A DNA stretch of 64,000 nucleotides from Tricharina praecox (Eukaryota), in NCBI RefSeq assembly GCF_024521635.1, contig NW_026250411.1:558001-622000 (forward strand), in the 5' to 3' direction. Below are positions 667 to 64,000 of the stretch, one piece after another. The translations under genes were made by a program, and so were the position numbers. Under the pieces are notes generated by a model that was not told the DNA's origin, made no database searches, and saw only the letters and a list, made by a program, of their open reading frames with translations. Each line of letters opens with the position of its first letter. Position 1 is the first letter of the stretch.

Positions 667-2660
667 CTACTCATCGACTACACCTGGAGCCTTGGCACTC
701 ATCTGCCTTGCCTTCAACAGCTCGTCGCAGAGCAATAAATTGCTGGCAATACCGGCCGCACTGGCAATCGAGTTCCTGAGCACCCTGAAGGAGTCGTAGA
801 CACCAGCAGCAACAGGGTCCATGGGCTCTCCGGTGGTCAGGTCGATTCCAACAACGTTTCCTTCGGCCTGCTCGTCCTGGAGGGCAGTCACTGAGGTGCT
901 CAATCTCATTAGTAATGATCATGTATAGTTATTTTGTACTTGGAGGAAGCTTACGGGAGTCCTGGATGTCGAAACCACCGTTCGCCGCCAGAGTCTTGGG
1001 GATGACGAGGAGGGCGTCGGCGAATGCCTGAACAGCCATTCTTGGCTTTCCCTTGATCTGCTTGCGCACGTTCTCGCTGATGAGGTGTGCGTGGCAGGCG
1101 ACCTGGAATGCACCGGCTCCGGGAACTACCGAGCCGTCGACAATCATGTTGTAAACACTTCGGAGACCGTCACGGACGGCATCCTGGATCTGGTTGATGG
1201 TGTGTGTGTTGGGGCCCTTGATCATGATAGTGACAGACTTGGCCTCTTTGACGTCCTCCTGTACCGGTGGTTAGAAGGAGGTGCGCCGGACGTACGGGAG
1301 GTTCGGACTTACAATGAAGGTGTACTTCTCCTCTCCGAGGGTGTGTTCGTAAACCTTTCCAGCCCAACCCAAGACTTCGGGTGTTAAGTCCTCGACAGAG
1401 TTCTGGGAGACACCACCACAGATCAATTGCAGCCGCTCCATGTTTCTCCTCTTCGCCCGTCGCAGAGCAAGGATGCCGTTCTTGCTCAGCACGTCCAAGC
1501 TCAGCGGGTCGATACCCTTCTGGTTGATGATAACGAAGCCTTTGCTAGGGTCGTCTCCGCACACCTGCTTCTTCAGCTCCACGATCTTCCTCAGCTTTTC
1601 ATCCACGAATCTCCTCTCGCTCTCAACAAGCTTCTCTCTCTGCTCGGCTGAAGAGTAGAAGAACCCAGAGTTGACTTCAGTCTTCTCGTACTCGAGGGAA
1701 ACGTTGAGGGTAAGGATGAAAGCGTTGTCGACTCTCCTGGGCATGTCGGGGTGGCGGGCGCCGTGGTCGAGGGCAAGGCCGCGGATCAACAGCGTCTCCG
1801 AAGCGGTCCGGTGCTGCATCTTCATAATCTCGATCATGTGTAGGTCGGGTTTAGCGGGAGCATTGTAGATGGCGAGAACGGCATCGACAATCGAGGGTGT
1901 CAGGGCTTCGGCGAGAGTCTTGTCGAGCTTGGTGGAGAGCGAGGTGCGGGCAACGCAGAGGAGCAGTTCACGATCGGGCTCTTTCTCAATTTTGAAATCA
2001 TCGAGAAACTGAAGCTATCAGCACGCATACCAGATGTGACGGAGTTGAAGCAGTGCTGGTTACCTTCAGAGCTTCCACCTTGGCTATTTCGTAACCTTCT
2101 GTGATAACTCGGGGATGAAGCCCTTCCTCGATATATCGCTTTGCTTGCTTCAGAAGCTCTCCGACTAACAGAACCACGCTTGTTGTACCATCTCCGGCAA
2201 TGTCGTCCAGAGCAGTTGCTGATACCTGTCAGCTTCACCAACCACCCGATACCCCGCCATCCGAACCGCCGTGGTCGTACCTGCTCTAGCAATCATCACA
2301 GCTTTGTAAACTATTAGCTTGATTCTCTGGCGGAAATGTATGTGGCGGAGATGCAGATGGTTTCGTGCATAGCATACCTGTGGGGTTCTGGATCGTCATC
2401 TCTCGCAATAGCTTCTGGCCATCCTTGGTCAAGGTAATTTGACCGGAGCCATCTACCAGCATCTTTAACGTTCCGGAGGGACCGAGGTTGGATTTGAGGA
2501 CATCCTGTAGGCCTAAGGAGCATCGTCAGATTACTGTACGCCGAAGCGTCGATATCTCCGAGCAAGCACGCCTACCTTCGCCGGCAGCGATATTGACTCT
2601 CAAAGCTTCTCCTCTGCGAACAGACTCCGCCTTGGGGTTGAGAAGAGATGTAGCTGACAT
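667..2660 (-). CDS. CCT6: Chaperonin CCT/TRiC subunit zeta, multi-exon
   Basis: Starts [23 protein letters not shown]. Contains [36 protein letters not shown] and DAVRDGLR, and ends [14 protein letters not shown]. Includes a 21-nt micro-exon at 2281-2301. Confidence 0.96.
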
Positions 2661-2956: not shown

Positions 2957-4710
2957 ATGTCGGCTGTCGATTACATCCTCCAGGAGGCCCCGGTCGGCTA
3001 CGGCTTGTACGAGGTTGTCCAGCAACCTGATACAATTGGCAATCGCCTGAAGGAAGTCCAAGAGGCCGCCAATGACCTCTCGAAGTTTGGAAAGATGATC
3101 AAGCTGGTGTCTTTTGCGCCTTTCCAGTCAGTCTTCCGCGGCGACCAGCCAATTGAGTTGTTTGTCTGTTCGTTCCAGCGCTGACGGTTCAAATGTAGAG
3201 GTGCCGCCCAAGCGCTTGAGAACGCAAATGACATCTCTGAGGGTATCGCCAGCGCCCACCTCTTGTCGCTCTTGGAGTTGAACCTCCCTAAGGGCGGAAA
3301 GAAGAAGAAGGTTGTCCTCGGTATCGCCGACAAGAACTTGGCTGGTTCTATCAAGGCCGCTTTCCCCGGCGTCGACTGTGAGACGAATGAAGTCGTGCAA
3401 GATCTTCTCCGTGGACTGCGCCTGCACGGTGATAAGCTCCTCAAGGCACTCCAGCCTGGTGATATGGACCGCGCTCAGCTTGGTTTGGGGCACGCCTACT
3501 CCCGCGCGAAGGTAAAGTTCTCGGTCCAGAAGAACGACAACCACATCATTCAGTCCATTGCGCTGTTGGATCTCATGGACAAGGACATTAACACTTTCTC
3601 CATGCGTGTTCGGTAGGCTCATGTCTTTAATCCCATAAGTCCCTGGCTGTTATTGACGTTTGGAAAGTGAATGGTACGGCTGGCACTTCCCGGAACTCAT
3701 CAAGATCGTCTCGGACAACTACAAGTACTGCAAGTTGGTTGCGCACATCAAGGAGAAGAAGACGCTCAACAACGAGCAGCTCCACGAGCTGGCCGCCTAC
3801 GTTGACGACGACCAGGAGATCGCACAGGCCATCATTGACGCCGCGAAGATGTCGATGGGTCAGGACATCTCTGACGCAGACATGGAGAACATTTTGACGT
3901 TCGCCACCAAAGTTAACTCGCTCGCGGACTTCCGCAAGCAGATCTTCGACTACTTGACTGACAAGATGTCCGTCGTTGCTCCTAACTTGGCCAAGCTCAT
4001 CGGAGAGGTCGTTGCCGCCCGTCTCATCTCGCACGCTGGTTCTTTGACCAACCTGTCCAAGTACCCCGCCTCGACAGTGCAGATTCTCGGTGCAGAGAAG
4101 GCGCTCTTCCGTGCGCTGAAGACCAAGGGCAACACCCCCAAGTATGGTCTCATCTACCACTCTTCCTTCATTGGAAGGGCCGGAGCCAAGAACAAGGGTC
4201 GCATCTCGCGATTCTTGGCCAACAAGTGTTCCATTGCTTCCAGAATCGATGCTTTCTCAGACAACCCCACTACCGTTTTCGGAGAGGCTTTGAGGAACCA
4301 GGTTGAGGAGCGGTTAGAGTTTTACGCCAACGGCACTGCGCCCACCAAGAACGAGGTCGCCATGGTACGTCTACTCTACATCTCTATGATGAAATTCGTT
4401 GGCTAATGTGGTTTAGAAATCCGCCATGGACTCGGTCTTGGGTGACATCAACATCTCCGCTGGTAACGACGACAAGGACTCGGACGACGAGGCTGTCAAG
4501 CCCAGTAAGAAAGAGAAGAAGGACAAGAAGGAGAAGAAGGACAAGAAGGAAAAGAAGGAGAAGAAGAGCAAGAAGGAGGCCGAGCCGGAACCCGAGTCCA
4601 AGAAGAGACCGAGAGAGGACGATGCGGAGGAGCCTGTGGAGAAGAAGAAGTCCAAGAAGGACAAGAAAGAGAAGAAGGAGAAGAAGAAGGAGAAGAAGAG
4701 CAAAGCTTAG
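2957..4710 (+). CDS. NOP56: Box C/D snoRNP core protein Nop56, multi-exon
   Basis: [58 protein letters not shown] and [19 protein letters not shown]. Ends in a KKE/D-repeat tail (4500-4700). Confidence 0.96.
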
Positions 4711-14642: not shown

Positions 14643-14810
14643 TACAGTTAGAGCTAGCTACTTAGTTTCATCTGGTTATCTGGTTATCTGGGTTTATTTT
14701 TGCGCGGAGTTGAGATGGGGATTTGGTTTGTTTTGGGCATAGATGATTGAGGTATTGAGGTATATAGAAAAAGGAACTAGACAAAAATTGGGTCTCTAAC
14801 CTTATTCACA

Positions 14811-14883
14811 GCCTCGCTAGCTCAATCGGTAGAGCGTAAGACTCTTAATCTTAAGGCTGCGGGTTCGACCCCCGCGTGGGGCT
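14811..14883 (+). tRNA. tRNA-Lys(CTT), no intron
   Basis: Cloverleaf with acceptor GCCTCGC/GTGGGGC, D-arm TAGCTCAATCGGTAGAGC, anticodon arm TAAGA-CTCTTAA-TCTTA and T-arm GCGGG-TTCGACC-CCCGC. Confidence 0.96.
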
Positions 14884-14899
14884 GCGTATTCATTTTGTG

Positions 14900-57243: not shown

Positions 57244-60200
57244 TTAAAGACCACCCAAAGCCCTGTAGAATCCCTCCCTCGCCCAGCATCCTGAATCCTC
57301 AGTTAATACATTACCCCTGATTTCGATCGCCTCACGCTGGCAGAGCCATTGGATGACATCCAGGGACTCTTTCAGCGTCAAACCCGGACACAACATCTTC
57401 GAAATCTCGCGCGGGTGGATACCAGGCCGTCCAGTGATCATCGAGAGAACCGAGGTAACAACACGGAGCCACATGCCCTTGATAACGTTGCGGTTCATGT
57501 CGATCCAGATACGCATGGGTTCAATCGGGTTGGCAGGATTCTTCCCTTCCGGTGTCGGTGGAAGCGGGGCAACTACCGGTCGTTCGAAGTAGCTGGGTTT
57601 TAACATTATGAAAACCTTGAAGTCGACCATGTGCTTCGGCATCGAGCGAGTTTCGTAGCCGTCAACCAGTCCCATCGCATTGGCTTTGTACTCGCGTTTT
57701 TCGAGGCGCACCTGTATGAAAATTAGCTAATGCGAAATAAGAAAATAGATTGATCACATACCCGTCCATTAGCAACCAAATCAAAGATGCACGCCACCGA
57801 TCCGTCATTCAAAAATGGCGAAAGCTCCACGGCCTGTTGCTGAACAAACATGTTTTTGAGGTTGCGATCGAACTTGAGGGCCTGAGCAAACAGCTTTTCG
57901 TCCATAGGAGTACGCAGTGAGGAATGAAATTTATCCGTCAACTCGTAATTCCGACCAGGCGCAACGCGGTTGTGCTCCTTGCGGTGAGCGACGACCTTGT
58001 TACTGTTCAATTCGAAGAAAGCCTCGTCTACTGCATCCTCGGGCTGTTCGTGGATAAGCGCGAAGGCTTCGGCAGGATTGTAACTGGCAGCATCGGTGAT
58101 GACATTGGCCTTAATGATTGACTTGACGTAGTCAACCACTTCACTTGATTTGTTGATCTCGACTTCAGGACTGATAGGAACCTCGTAGGCATAGCACACA
58201 AAATGGTTGGCCCTATTGCCCATCGTAAAGGTCGGATTGTGATAGTCCGCACGCCATGTCGATGGTTTCTCCAGGCGAAGATTGTACAAGTTGTCGAAGA
58301 CTTCCCGTTTAGCCGAAAGTTCAGGAACAGCATGAGCCCTGGAAATATTAGCACCAACTCCCGGTGTAAGAGGGATAGCAACTTACTCAGGGAGCTCAAG
58401 GTTGTCTCGGAACCACTTCACATGGAGTGGCAGATCAAAACTCATGGGGTCCTTGAGATTGATTACCGGTAGCTCATCATTAGCGTAAGCCTCAAGGTAC
58501 ATCTCCTCGAATTCGGATTGAAGCTTCTTCAAGTGAGTCTTATGAACGTCGCGTACTCGTGGCCAACGGCGTTGCAGAACAACCGGTAAGTGCTGGGGTG
58601 TAGCCTTCCTCACGAGGTCCCAGTTGATCTTACGGTCAACATTGCCAAAGATGGTCCGGACAATGATCACGGCAATCAAAAGGGTGTCTTCGTCTTCCTT
58701 CGGAATCGTGTACTTATTCCTATACCTCCAGTCCTTCCTGGCATGCACTACTGTAAGTTAGCATCATTCGCTATTAATCGAATCCGCCAAACTTGCCTTC
58801 CTGTTCCTCATCAACTGTTTCAAGCGTAGTGGTTTGGTGAATAGCGGCCATTGCCTGCTGGCGACGGGAAACTGTCGGCTCCTTCTGTAATACCCTTCTT
58901 CGCCGTCTCTTTTTGCCAACCGGCGGCGGACCACCGTCATCTTCCTCTACACCAGTTAAGCTTGCGATTCTAGCTCGAGGCCTGGGCACAGCCATGTACA
59001 GGCTAGGGCGCCCAACAGTCCTCTTCACTCCACCTGTCTTGGAGACAGTATTTCTCACGATGTGCTCCATAGAAGGCGGCACCTGGGAAAAGTCCTCGCC
59101 AACCTCCACTTCAGGTCCAAAGTGATTGATCATAACGAGGCCGTCTTCCTTTGCCGGATTAAGCGACTTATCATATTTATTCAGCATTTCCCAATTTCGG
59201 ACGTCCTTAATATCTTTAAGAAGAGAAATAGAGGAAGGACGCTGAACGAAGTCTTCCCACCATATCGTCTGAGGGCCTGTATCTTCCTCAGCTTCGTCGT
59301 CCATAGGTCCCTGAAACTTGTGTCGCAGCTTGTGGATCTTGTTGCTGAGCTCTGCCTTTCTTCGACGGGCCTCTTCTTTCTGCTCCTCGGTGAACTTTCC
59401 GGTGTAATGTGAGATTATGCCGCTCTTCTTCAAGGCACGCATCTCCTGCCGCACCCGCTTCTCCTCAGCCTTCTGGGCATTCTTAACGGCACGTTCTACC
59501 GCTCTCTCTTCGCGCTGTTTCTTGATATTCTCCACAGAAGTCGGATAGATCCTGTCGAACTCGGTCTCTTCGATGGCACTCTGCGGCGCTTGTACCCAGG
59601 TATTCGTCGGATTCAACATTTTCTCCTTCACCTCTGGAGCCAAGTCAACTCCTGGTGGATACCAAAGACCTCCATCAGCAGCCTTCATCTGTCTAACAGC
59701 CTCGGCAATCATCGGGGACTCCATCGGTATTTTGATATCTACCAAGAGCTTCTTGGTTGTGAGAATTCCTCGTCCGTTTAGGAAGCTGAAGGTGAATTGG
59801 TTGATTTTGCCTTTGTATTGAAGTGACTGAACGACACCGCGAACAAGCCGACGATCGGCTATTCCTGCCTTCGGATTCCTTTGTCTATACTTCTGGTTGA
59901 AGGCGTGGCGAAGCTCGTTACCACCAGGGAAAACCCCATCGTGCTCCGCCATCAAATCCAGGACCACTTGCTGGCGACCAAGGGCTAACATTCCGCCAAT
60001 GGATCCGTAGGAGTCGTTGTCACCTTCCTCGAGACCCTCGTTTTCGACAGGAATGCCATCAATATTGAACACAATCTTCGGCTCCGGAGCAAGCGGCTCA
60101 GGCTCTTTCTCGGGCGCCGCTTCGATTTTCATTGGAGTGTTTACGGGCTCTGCCATTGGCGACGGTTCAGGGATCCTTCCTGCCCCTCCAGAAACAATCT

Positions 60201-63200
60201 CCTGTGGCCCAACGACAACCGGCTCACCCAATGTTTCAAGGGCTTCGGGAGCTGGTGCATCTTCCATCGGAACATCTGTAGGCTCTTCTAGCACAAGGGG
60301 CACTTGAGCGTTGGTGTCAGGGAGTGCGTCAGCCCGACTACGCTTGTCTGGAGCTGACTCCGCGGGGGGTGGGGAAACGGCCTTGCGCTTTCGTGTGGTC
60401 CTTGGGGTTTTGGGTGTTACTGTCCTGGGTGTTGCGGTTTTGCGTGGACGGCCCTGCTTTACAGGCGCTGGGGTAGGCGTGGCATCGACAGACACAGGCG
60501 CGGTGACATCCGGATTTGCTTCTTGAGAGGCTTGAGGAGTGACTGGGGGTACAGTGGCCTTAGAAGTTTTTGTCGCCCGAATCGCCCGTTTTTCCTTGCC
60601 TTTCGCTGCGGAAGAAGCTGGAGTTTCTGGTACCTGGAAGTCTTGAAGTGGTGTTTTTGATGCCTCGGGGACTCCAGCTGGGGCTTTTGATTCCTGGGTG
60701 CCTTGAGCGGGGGTTGCTGGTGTAGTATTTGCTTTAGTCGCCGCGGCACGGTTTTTCGGGGGGCGTCCTCGGCGCTTGGGCTCAACGGGAGTACCATCGT
60801 CTGTCTTCTGCTTCTTCGGTGGTCTTCCGCGACGCTTCGGTGTTGGCACGGGCGTTTCCGTCGTGGCGTCTTCACCCTCTCCATTCCTCGGGTTCGGTGA
60901 TTCCCCTGCTTCTGTTGCCGCTGCTTCGAGAATCGCTTTCCGTTTTTTGGCAGAAAGATACGGCTCCTCTCCCTTCGGATATTTGCGGGGTCGGCCAGTA
61001 CGAGCTTTTCCATCCAATAAGTTTTAATTCTCGGGGGGAGGAGGGAGAGGTAATCAGGAAATTGCACTCACCAACGCCCTTTTTCCAGCCAGGTTTCCCC
61101 GTCATTGCCGCCGTATTCTCCTTACTCTTACCGACATTCGAACTGTCGGCCAGGCTGGCAGAGCCATCTTTCTTGACCAGACGCCTCGTGGCAACAGGCG
61201 GAAAGCCGTACTCGTCGAGTTCTTCAACGGGCTCAGGTGACGGGCGTTCCGATGCTTCCGTTTGCGATCCTTTCTTGACGCCTTTCTTCTTTGATGTAAT
61301 CGCCCAAGGCTCAACAGCAAGTCCTTCCTTGACAAGCTGTTGATGCGATTCATAGCAGAAGTAGTGATAATGAGTCTGACGGTGAGTGATACTAGTCTCA
61401 CGGATAACAGCTAGATGGATATATTCTATTGGTTGTGATTTCGATGGAAAGTCGGTCATTCGATGCAAGACTTGATCCATTGGCCTGTAATAAAACGGTC
61501 CGATAATACGATGTACTACATCCTACAAGGATGAAGTCAGTAAATGGCTCATAGAACTCGAGAAGCAACACCTACCATGCTGGAAATCCCCTCTTTGCCG
61601 GCTCCCTTGACCAAGTTGTAGATAATGTTCGGCATCGGAACGGTCATAGTCCACCGTGGTACTTCTCGGGGAATCTTTTCAATGGCGTCAACATCCACGT
61701 GGGCCAGCTGCTCGTTGATGGCGTCAACATCCACGGCTTCGTCCTCCCGTTCTCCCTTTTCTTCCTCGGCGTCAGAAGCTTCATCCTCTTCTTCATCCTC
61801 CTCCCCAATCGTCATCTTCGAAGAATTTGCAAGCCTCCGCCAATCTTCGGCCGTTATGTCTCGAACAAACTTGATGCACCGCGCGTGGCATCGGACGGTT
61901 ACAGTGCCTCCTCCTTTCTTGTCATAGCTGCGATTGTTGGCCAATGGAACCCGGATTCGTTTCCACACGCCGAATGATTCAACTTTTCGGAGAATCCGGG
62001 AAAGAGAACGCCAGTGGAATCTGGAGCGGTCCATACCCTTACGTAGATCAGCATTCGATAACCAAATCGATTGGGAACGGGATTGCATACCAGCTTCTTC
62101 TTGAGATCACCTCTCTGTATAACACCATTTTTGGCATTCTTGAGTTCCGCGATGATAGCTCTGATCAAACTCTCCAGGTGAATGGTTTCGCCAGTCCATC
62201 GCTCGCTGCTCTTGCTGGATGCAGGTTTGCCCTTTAACCCACTGTCATCTTTGTGATCTTGTGCTAGTTTCCTGTCACGTAGATAGGCAAATTTCGTGAG
62301 CGTGAGCTTGCTCGTGTTCATGCTTTTGGCCAGAACAGCGACCTTCTCAATATAGCCCATTTCCTTGAGCAAGGTCGTCCGGCCAGCGATGGACTTCTTA
62401 TCTTGACCGGTGATCTTGGTAAGGTCCGGCTGGATCAATCCCTGTTCACGGTGCTTCCCAATCACCTCGAGACACTTGAAAACGGCGTTTGGCACCTGGT
62501 GGGAGATCAGCATACGATCACAACGAGTGATAAGGGAACAAAAGCTTACCCTCTTCGGATCCGGGCCATGGCCTGTAAGTGTCCGCCACCGACGATCCTC
62601 GCTCGCATACACTCGGAGATTGGCGTCGTCCTTATTCTCCCTCCATTTGTCGACTATTTCTCCCAGTGACATACCCCGGGATTCGTTTTTTGGGCCGACA
62701 TTGAAGTCCTTCTGCTGTCTCAAAAGACCCCAGACATACTCCTGGAATTCTTCCTTGACGTTTGGAGTCCCCCAACACTCAGCAGCGATGCGGTCTCTCT
62801 CAGCAGCAGCTTCATCGCCGTCGCCAGCCATGTCCTCATCTCCGTCTTCTTTTCGACCCTCCAATTGATCGGCCCAGAGAAGTTCACCAACATAATGTCG
62901 CTCCTGACGGCTTTTGACATAGAAGTCATTGACGTACTTGAATAGCTCCTCGACGTCAGTGCCTAATAGTCGCAAAATTCATATCAGCACTAACTCGGTC
63001 GGATCGCACGAAACTAGACAGTGATAAATATCCCAAATCGGTGCCGCTTTCAAGTCTCGAACCTATCACATTCCCAAGGGAAAAGTGACAAAGCGAGCAT
63101 TCAAGCAGCCACGTCCCAACAGGGTAATGTGTTTGGGTTCACACTAGAACCCAGTAGCGTCAAACTGTAACCAGAATGTGAAATTTTGCGACGGGAGATC

Positions 63201-63383
63201 GCGATGTTGATGATGGCATTGGTGAGCAGGCATGCCCCACCACTGCATCTCGATTCCTTTTTTTATTTTTCGCCACAGAAAAGCGACTGCAACGAGAGAG
63301 AACATGAAAAAATATAACATACCTTCAGCACCATCAATGGCGACCTCTTCGAGGACGTAGTTCAATAGAGCTTTCACACTCAT
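57244..63383 (-). CDS. TFC3: TFIIIC B-block-binding subunit (Tfc3/Sfc3/tau138), multi-exon
   Basis: N-terminus LLNYVLEEVAIDGAEG, RVYASEDRRWRTLTGH, B-block_TFIIIC motif FKCLEVIGKHREQGLIQPDLTKITGQDKKS, GVFPGG and RIWID..RPGI. Confidence 0.88.
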
Positions 63384-63489
63384 CGCGGAGCTTTGAGCAT
63401 GGGGAGATTGAGTCGAGAAGTTGTAGGGATGGTGTAGAAATCGAGATGTGTGTAGGAGGGTGAAGAGTTAAAAGTAAAAAGGATGGTGG

Positions 63490-63500
63490 GGAATCGAACC
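63490..63500 (-). promoter_or_regulatory. Isolated Pol III B-box (GGTTCGATTCC) upstream of TFC3; candidate extra-TFIIIC (ETC) site
   Basis: Plus strand GGAATCGAACC reads GGTTCGATTCC on the minus strand, matching all fixed positions of GGTTCGANTCC. It is 107 bp upstream of the ATG, with no tRNA cloverleaf around it. Confidence 0.7.
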
Positions 63501-64000
63501 ACCACTTCCATGTCACATGCTTGTGCTAAGTAAGCGACAATTTGTGTTACCCGGTGAAAGGTGGTTTAGCTAGTGCAAGAAACGAGGCTAGAGCTTTCTA
63601 TGATATCAGAACCCCACCAGCCAGTCCCCACTCTCTCCATTCACGCGAAACAAAACAGCAATGGAATCTACTATCGTATACCCCCGAGTGACAATCCAGT
63701 ACTGTACTCAATGCAAATGGCTTCTCCGTATTTATTTCCTGTGATCTCAAGCTTTCGATCGGACAATTCTGATGGCTTCGTACAGGCGCCGCATATGTAA
63801 GATCCGGACGAGCTGCTTGTTAAAAGCTCATGCACTGATTGTAGAAGTTTGCACAAGAGCTACTCTCCACATTCTCGACTTCGCTAGGTGAAGTCTCGCT
63901 CCAACCCTCGACCGGAGGAACCTTCGTGGTGAACATCTACCACAAAGAAGACACTTCCTCGAGCGAGGTGACGACTACGAATTTGTGGGATCGTAAGACA

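Follow-up and report, generated by a model that had tools for sequence, protein, structure and literature searches.

The promoter of the TFC3/sfc3 orthologue, the gene for the B-box-binding subunit of TFIIIC, contains a perfect orphan B-box, GGTTCGATTCC, at positions 63490..63500 of the 64-kb stretch of DNA analysed here (the window). The box lies on the minus strand, sense to TFC3 and 107-117 bp upstream of the ATG, and it may well be an ETC-type TFIIIC site that is kept by selection and feeds back on TFC3, in parallel to the ETC6-TFC6 pair of S. cerevisiae. By analogy with baker's yeast, a self-regulating TFC3 loop is plausible.

To our knowledge, a single gene in one yeast is the known case of TFIIIC autoregulating by way of an orphan B-box. 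There, the B-box of ETC6, which sits in the TFC6 promoter, binds TFIIIC and lowers TBP occupancy, loss of the box raises TFC6 mRNA about 2-fold, the promoter is repressed by overexpression of Tfc6 and of no other subunit, and the question has been asked whether further TFIIIC subunits are auto-regulated (PMC3334521, a commentary on Kleinschmidt et al. 2011). The box at TFC3 is apparently a second, candidate case at a TFIIIC subunit gene, which would be independent of the yeast one. A conserved orphan B-box at the gene of the B-box reader makes the question of subunit autoregulation directly testable; if the reading is true, ETC-type sites extend to filamentous ascomycetes, and the box together with its extension would offer a compact natural element for studying the competition between tauB and the Pol II machinery.

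The TFC3 gene and its promoter B-box

The TFC3 coding region (57244..63383, minus strand) was recognised by its Pfam domains: its second ORF piece carries B-block_TFIIIC (6.2e-19), and eWH_GTF3C1 and DUF6581 fall on later minus-strand ORFs. The best protein relatives, from Geopyxis carbonaria (54% identity), Morchella and Tirmania, are 1422-1831 aa long and have the same Pfam set; going by these closest Tfc3 proteins, the organism is a Pezizales-like ascomycete. Exon 1 (63323..63383, minus strand; 20 codons plus 1 nt) is delimited by the splice joints of RNA contigs and encodes a conserved N-terminal peptide. Because this peptide matches the N-termini of the Geopyxis, Morchella-like and Tirmania homologues, the ATG is fixed at 63383, and the distance of 107 bp between the near end of the motif and the ATG, as given in the first-pass annotation, is therefore correct. 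Intron 1 (62963..63322, minus strand; 360 nt, GTATGT...TAG) is seen as a joint that skips 360 nt in X3 and X6, and RNA contigs extend exon 2 to 62548, where a 54-nt intron follows.

Among the four runs that gave RNA contigs, X2, X3 and X6 have spliced contigs matching the window at 99% or more and X7 covers just 62300-62447; all four are at least 95% identical to the window and therefore carry no cross-species information. The spliced TFC3 contigs reach 63446 in X3 and 63417 in X6, giving a minimum 5' UTR of at least 63 nt (63384..63446, minus strand). Counted from the furthest contig end (63446), the B-box is 44-54 bp upstream; for the TFC3 mRNA's 5' end, contig ends give no more than a lower bound. 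On its other side a divergent Rdx-family (SelW-like) gene (63625..64000, plus strand; Pfam Rdx, 2.3e-09) runs out of the window, with RNA contigs that start at 63625-63632 and an ATG at 63662. The B-box between these two genes, TFC3 on the minus and Rdx on the plus strand, sits inside a 177-bp contig-free gap within a divergent intergenic region of 278 bp, a location that is a tendency of ETC sites and not a rule. Positions 63447-63624 are without RNA-contig cover, the contigs being silent on small or non-polyadenylated RNAs.

The 11-mer was recovered exactly where the first-pass annotation had placed it (63490-63500, minus strand), and it is the sole match to GGTTCGATTCC in the window, even at one mismatch. 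It fits all fixed positions of GGTTCGANTCC/GGTTCGANNCC, the former being the eukaryotic B-box consensus as given in PMC3395662, and the same is true of the B-boxes of L001, L003 and L004, three of the orthologous loci described below. Perfect GGTTCGANNCC words occur twice in the window, once as the B-box of a tRNA-Lys and once at the promoter site. The earlier argument that such a placement is unlikely by chance does not hold: with nine fixed positions, GGTTCGANNCC is expected by simple arithmetic about 0.5 times per 64 kb on both strands, at least one match with one mismatch or fewer appeared in 71 of 100 shuffles, and hundreds of matches are expected in a fungal genome of tens of megabases (genome size assumed). 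What takes the site beyond chance is its conservation in orthologous promoters, and not its rarity. About 95 kb of non-redundant fungal DNA (the window, L001, L003, L004, L006 and L007) hold six perfect GGTTCGANNCC words, of which one is in the tRNA-Lys and five, the L007 word included, lie in sense orientation no more than 170 bp upstream of a TFC3 ATG.

Conservation of the box, its 3' extension and an intronic word

A metagenome scan with an alignment of Tfc3 N-terminal regions (A1) gave seven loci, which together with the window represent five distinct lineages, L001, L002 and L005 being one species and L006 and L007 being alike. Protein identity to the query is 82% for L003, 81% for L004, 63% for L001 and 45% for L006/L007, a Tirmania-like pair. 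The first-pass annotation had tied its reading to conservation of the box in related promoters, and this was borne out in four of the five lineages, in which a perfect B-box lies on the same strand 92-117 bp before the TFC3 ATG; L006/L007 are without it. Measured from the start of the box to the ATG, the distance is 117 bp in the window, 116 bp in L004 and 95 bp in L001, all three with GGTTCGATTCC, and 92 bp in L003, which has GGTTCGATCCC. The sole substitution in the L003 word falls at an N position of the consensus, and all nine fixed positions are kept in the four lineages. In each of these B-box-bearing loci the box is the sole perfect one within 6-7 kb. A second GTTCGATTC in L004, at position 2329 by the neighbour's start codon, is not conserved and was taken as chance.

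In an alignment of the four lineages (A2), 10 of 12 columns of the B-box are invariant. For the box plus a 20-nt extension the count is 23 of 32, compared with 43 of 61 in coding exon 1, 25 of 128 in the upstream flank and 15 of 86 in the flank down to the ATG. Between the window and L001, the most distant of the three B-box-bearing relatives, the flanks are effectively unalignable. The longest string common to their 300-bp upstream regions is GGTTCGATTCCCC, whose length of 13 was reached by none of 500 dinucleotide shuffles (shuffle maximum 12). Since the window, L003 and L004 are close relatives, these data amount to about two independent comparisons.

No conserved B-box was found in the L006/L007 promoter. 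L007 has GGTTCGAAGCC 169 bp upstream of TFC3, but L006, closely related to it, has the degenerate GGCTCGAAGTG at the equivalent position, and the upstream regions of the pair share with that of the window only 8-mers, which were matched by 321 and 322 of 500 shuffles.

The distance from the Rdx ATG to the TFC3 ATG is 231-278 bp in the window, L003 and L004, and 1340 bp in L001, where the B-box is still 95 bp from TFC3. Because the box keeps its position when Rdx moves to 1.34 kb, it belongs with TFC3 and not with Rdx.

Directly 3' of the box lies an extension (63470..63489, minus strand) that consists of CC, 7 nt, T5 (63476-63480), AC and T4 (63470-63473), and in which the four lineages agree at 13 of 20 alignment columns. 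The longest strings that the window shares with L003 and L004, of 20 and 23 nt, correspond to this T-rich extension right after the B-box, and a T5-T6 run starts 9-10 nt past the box on the B-box strand in all four lineages. The extension may be a downstream contact zone of tauB, an A/T-rich Pol II core-promoter element, or both. The spacing of its T-run resembles that of a Pol III terminator.

Intron 1 holds a further, imperfect B-box-like word, GGTTCGAGACT (63053..63063, minus strand, sense). It lies 437 bp downstream of the B-box in the promoter, and about 100 nt separate it from the 3' splice site. The length of intron 1 stays within 320-360 nt in the six sequences compared; in five of the six the sense strand carries GTTCGANNC, with 99-134 nt between it and the 3' splice site, the L004 word being degenerate (GTTAGG). 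GTTCGA is the sole 6-mer common to the introns of the window, L001, L003, L006 and L007; in L006/L007 the word has the form AGTTCGATTCC, with a T6-T7 run after it. Three-way intron comparisons gave 7 shared six-mers versus 2.7 in shuffles. With moderate confidence, these data point to a second, weaker B-box-like core conserved in intron 1. The first-pass annotation had overlooked this core, the T-rich 3' extension and where the site lies with respect to the mRNA 5' end.

A candidate ETC-type site at the gene of the B-box reader

The ETC sites known in S. cerevisiae and their S. pombe counterparts, the COC sites (PMC3395662, citing Moqtaderi & Struhl 2004 and Noma 2006), share with the TFC3 site the B-box consensus without an A-box, and also a conserved extension on the 3' side, a preference for divergent intergenic regions and conservation among close species. 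Judged by its sequence, the TFC3 site has all the features of an ETC site, the conserved extension 3' of the box among them, except likeness to the yeast-specific extension. PMC3395662 tabulates eight ETC sequences of 23 bp, none of which lies at TFC3; set against them, the extension is not of the yeast type: by eye, it is C-rich and then T-rich and is without the terminal G-rich ...GC word. Likeness to the yeast extension is, however, a weak yardstick because its consensus is a species-level one. The sequence-level features of an ETC6-type autoregulatory promoter are likewise present, namely a TFIIIC-subunit gene with a B-box in its promoter (here the TFC3 orthologue, with the box 107 bp before the ATG) and conservation of the site, which extends to four of the five lineages and not to L006/L007.

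At ETC6-TFC6 as at TFC3, a tRNA-less B-box lies in the promoter of a tauB-subunit gene, within a divergent intergenic region, and is conserved among related species. The ETC6 binding region spans -150 to -90 (PMC3334521) and the TFC3 B-box -117 to -107 from the ATG, so that both lie about 100 bp upstream. The box is apparently sense to the gene in both cases, the orientation of ETC6 following from the Watson-strand table of PMC3395662 and the 'C' in YDR362C. The two differ in their target, which is TFC3 (tau138) in a Pezizomycete here and TFC6 (tau91) in Saccharomycetes there, and in the box itself, a perfect tRNA-type word at TFC3 and GGTTCGAAAAC in the tabulated ETC6 sequence. Unlike at ETC6, the extension at TFC3 ends in a T-run and a second B-box-like word lies in intron 1. 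Moreover, whereas ETC sites are defined by TFIIIC occupancy without TFIIIB or Pol III, the TFC3 site is known here from its sequence.

In the mechanism that we propose, assembled TFIIIC would bind the promoter B-box through its tauB module. Base contacts that tau91 makes downstream of the B-box have been described as conserved at eight ETC loci, and the tauB-DNA model presented in the same source spans 40 bp (PMC11724288). A tauB footprint of about 40 bp, with 63490-63500 at its centre, would take in the 3' extension and the A/T-rich tract. The tract is placed about 25-35 bp upstream of where the furthest TFC3 mRNA contig ends, a distance at which filamentous fungi are expected to have a TATA-like or pyrimidine-rich core element. 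Because of this position of the tract, we propose that bound TFIIIC would hinder TBP and the assembly of the pre-initiation complex. Plentiful TFIIIC would then lower TFC3 transcription, a negative feedback on the B-box reader, and the intron-1 word could serve as a second TFIIIC contact and a Pol II roadblock, in keeping with the block to Pol II read-through described for TFIIIC-bound sites in PMC4228148. The sign of the regulation is not readable from the sequence, and TFIIIC could instead keep the TFC3 promoter open. Tfc3 as the sensor would be without precedent, since in yeast only overexpression of Tfc6 repressed the TFC6 promoter.

A real TFIIIC site might also have an architectural or positive role that needs no sensing of the TFIIIC level: it could exclude nucleosomes, form a boundary, or be a roadblock to Pol II, so that the start site of TFC3 is fixed and the gene is insulated from upstream transcription. 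Roles of ETC sites and tDNAs as insulators, barriers and roadblocks are described in PMC4228148 and PMC3395662, as are the 5'-extended, poorly translated mRNAs that downstream genes produce upon loss of TFIIIC. The divergent setting of the box agrees with such a role, and so does L001, where the intergenic region has grown to 1.3 kb and the box has stayed beside TFC3, as would fit a shield against upstream transcription. We nevertheless regard an architectural or positive role as rather unlikely: the choice of the B-box-binding subunit gene as the shielded gene in every lineage would be left unexplained, and all five orphan perfect B-boxes in the approximately 95 kb sit at TFC3. Any TFIIIC-dependent effect on TFC3, of either sign, would furthermore be a feedback loop by construction.

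The feedback reading can be extended, very tentatively, to a two-site TFIIIC 'bracket' round TFC3 exon 1, which would have evolved in Pezizomycetes independently of ETC6-TFC6 and would sense TFIIIC both at initiation and at elongation or splicing. The perfect extended B-box, which abuts the core promoter, would occlude TBP at initiation, and the second word, in an unusually long and length-conserved intron 1, would act as a roadblock or lead to a non-productive isoform at elongation or splicing; in L006/L007 the strong site would be the intronic one. Should such a bracket exist, autoregulation through ETC sites would be a recurrent, re-wirable property of TFIIIC and not a yeast peculiarity.

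Pol III, other-factor and relic readings

In a tRNA gene the B-box word is the T-loop region of the 3' half and a T-run follows about 10 nt on, on the same strand, and both traits recur at the TFC3 site, where the T5-T6 run has the place of an oligo-T terminator in four lineages. This spacing, close to that of a tRNA-gene 3' end and found on the B-box strand in 4/4 lineages, would suit a cryptic Pol III unit in which a short tRNA-derived or novel small RNA ends at the T-run and the B-box is an ordinary internal promoter. We consider such a unit improbable. Unlike a tRNA gene, the site is without a 5' half, an A-box and a good T-stem (pairing in just 3 of 5 positions in the window), and in none of the five lineages did a covariance model or ARAGORN give a match. 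The only tRNA that ARAGORN reports in the window is the tRNA-Lys(CUU) at 14810-14885, and a run with introns allowed and a lowered threshold returned nothing credible at the B-box. Rfam searches found no tRNA-like match (RF00005) in 63000-64000 with permissive filters at E<=10, and none in the five loci at E<=5. Calls of 'tRNAs' by ARAGORN at -ps80, -ps60 and -ps90 were rejected as artefacts, their introns measuring 53-2256 nt and their places disagreeing between species, and weak Rfam matches to SNORD62 and TeloSII_ncR30 in the window and to snR75 and sR2 in the loci are far under gathering scores.

For the A-box we assumed a consensus with nine fixed positions. The best A-box-like words upstream of the box score 5-6 of 9 at distances that differ between species, none of them conserved, and the window's tRNA-Lys, taken as a control, has an A-box that fits 7 of 9 positions at the canonical distance of 44 nt. 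The first-pass annotation had described flanks without a cloverleaf and no A-box at tRNA spacing; both descriptions agree with these searches (ARAGORN and Rfam for the former, upstream words of at most 6/9 for the latter), and the tRNA or pseudo-tRNA that it wished to see excluded is not recognisable at the site by ARAGORN, Rfam or the A-box scan. At the sequence level there is thus no Pol III gene (tRNA, A-box) nearby, as is the case for ETC sites. The RNA fold around the box is no better than that of shuffles (z = -0.78), and the consensus fold of the four species, at -7.95 kcal/mol, has a covariation term that is positive and is without covariation support. Conservation does not extend 5' of the box in L001 (25/128 invariant columns), and the T-rich tract can be read equally well as a core-promoter element for Pol II, given its place about 30 bp ahead of the mRNA 5' end.

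Quite improbable, too, is a Pol II promoter element for another factor whose identity with a B-box would be coincidental. The block is placed where a core promoter is expected, the T-rich tract is more conserved than the B-box among close relatives, and further conserved words lie close by (TTACCCGG, CACATG), all of which would agree with such an element. However, 9 of 9 fixed B-box positions are kept in four lineages with the sole substitution at an N position, a chance match of the conserved block to the consensus would arise at about 1 in 2.6x10^5 per position (arithmetic), and it is the product of TFC3 itself that reads the B-box word.

It is highly improbable that the box is a chance motif or a neutral, functionless remnant of a former tRNA gene or SINE. 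For such an origin speak the layout of B-box and T-run, which is like that of a tRNA gene 3' end, the descent of ETC-like sites from tDNAs, which we infer to be possible, and the single match per 64 kb, which chance would allow. Against it, the block matches coding sequence in its conservation although the flanks on both sides have decayed, it holds an orthologous position in lineages with just 63% Tfc3 N-terminal identity, and it is single copy in the window and the loci, evidence that counts against neutrality and not against a tRNA origin. The box occurs once in the window and once per locus, and its orthologous position across lineages argues against a recent SINE insertion.

Two further words near the box are conserved. 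TTACCCGG (63547..63554, plus strand) lies in the gap without RNA contigs, is conserved in the three closest lineages and presumably resembles the site of yeast Reb1. The window, L004 and L003 have identical copies of the block CACCGGGTAAC, which L001 has not kept. The CACATG word is also conserved near the B-box.

An alternative 3′ splice site in TFC3 intron 1

An RNA contig from sequencing run X2 revealed an alternative 3′ splice site in intron 1 (62963–63322, minus strand) of the TFC3/sfc3 orthologue, with its AG at 63244–63243. In this isoform only 80 nt of the intron (63243–63322) are spliced out, so that the remainder (62963–63242) is retained, including the second, imperfect B-box-like word at 63053–63063. 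The isoform reaches a stop at codon 48 and is thus non-productive. Likewise, according to PMC3983031, an alternative 3′ splice site in S. cerevisiae TFC3 gives rise to an isoform that is targeted by NMD in that yeast.

B-boxes in the L006/L007 pair and elsewhere in the window

Among the metagenome loci carrying TFC3 homologues, the closely related and most divergent pair, L006 and L007, has its strong B-box, AGTTCGATTCC, within TFC3 intron 1, where a T6–T7 run follows 21–22 nt beyond it in both loci. In L007, a perfect B-box, GGTTCGAAGCC, also precedes the TFC3 ATG at a distance of 169 bp (1927–1937, plus strand); its counterpart in L006 (about 120–130) is degenerate.

The sole tRNA gene of the window, tRNA-Lys(CUU) (14810–14885, plus strand; B-box GGTTCGACCCC), served as positive control for A-box/B-box spacing. 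Separately, GGTTCAACTCC at 3274–3284 (minus strand) matches the looser GGTTCRANNCC form of the B-box.

The intergene shared with the Rdx-family neighbour

The intergenic region between TFC3 and its divergent Rdx-family neighbour spans ∼1.3 kb in L001 (1278–2520), compared to 0.23–0.28 kb in the other lineages. In the window it contains TTACCCGG (63547–63554, plus strand), which resembles the yeast Reb1 site and is part of the block CACCGGGTAAC; L003 and L004 share this block with the window in identical form, and L001 does not. A CACATG word (63514–63519) adjoins TTACCCGG. These words, the surrounding block included, are probably ordinary bidirectional-promoter elements.

Within the Rdx-family gene itself, we observed a 10-nt micro-exon (about 63787–63796, plus strand) flanked by two short introns; in RNA contigs from three runs, the two sides of a 119-nt joint (63729–63847, plus strand) are separated by 10 letters.
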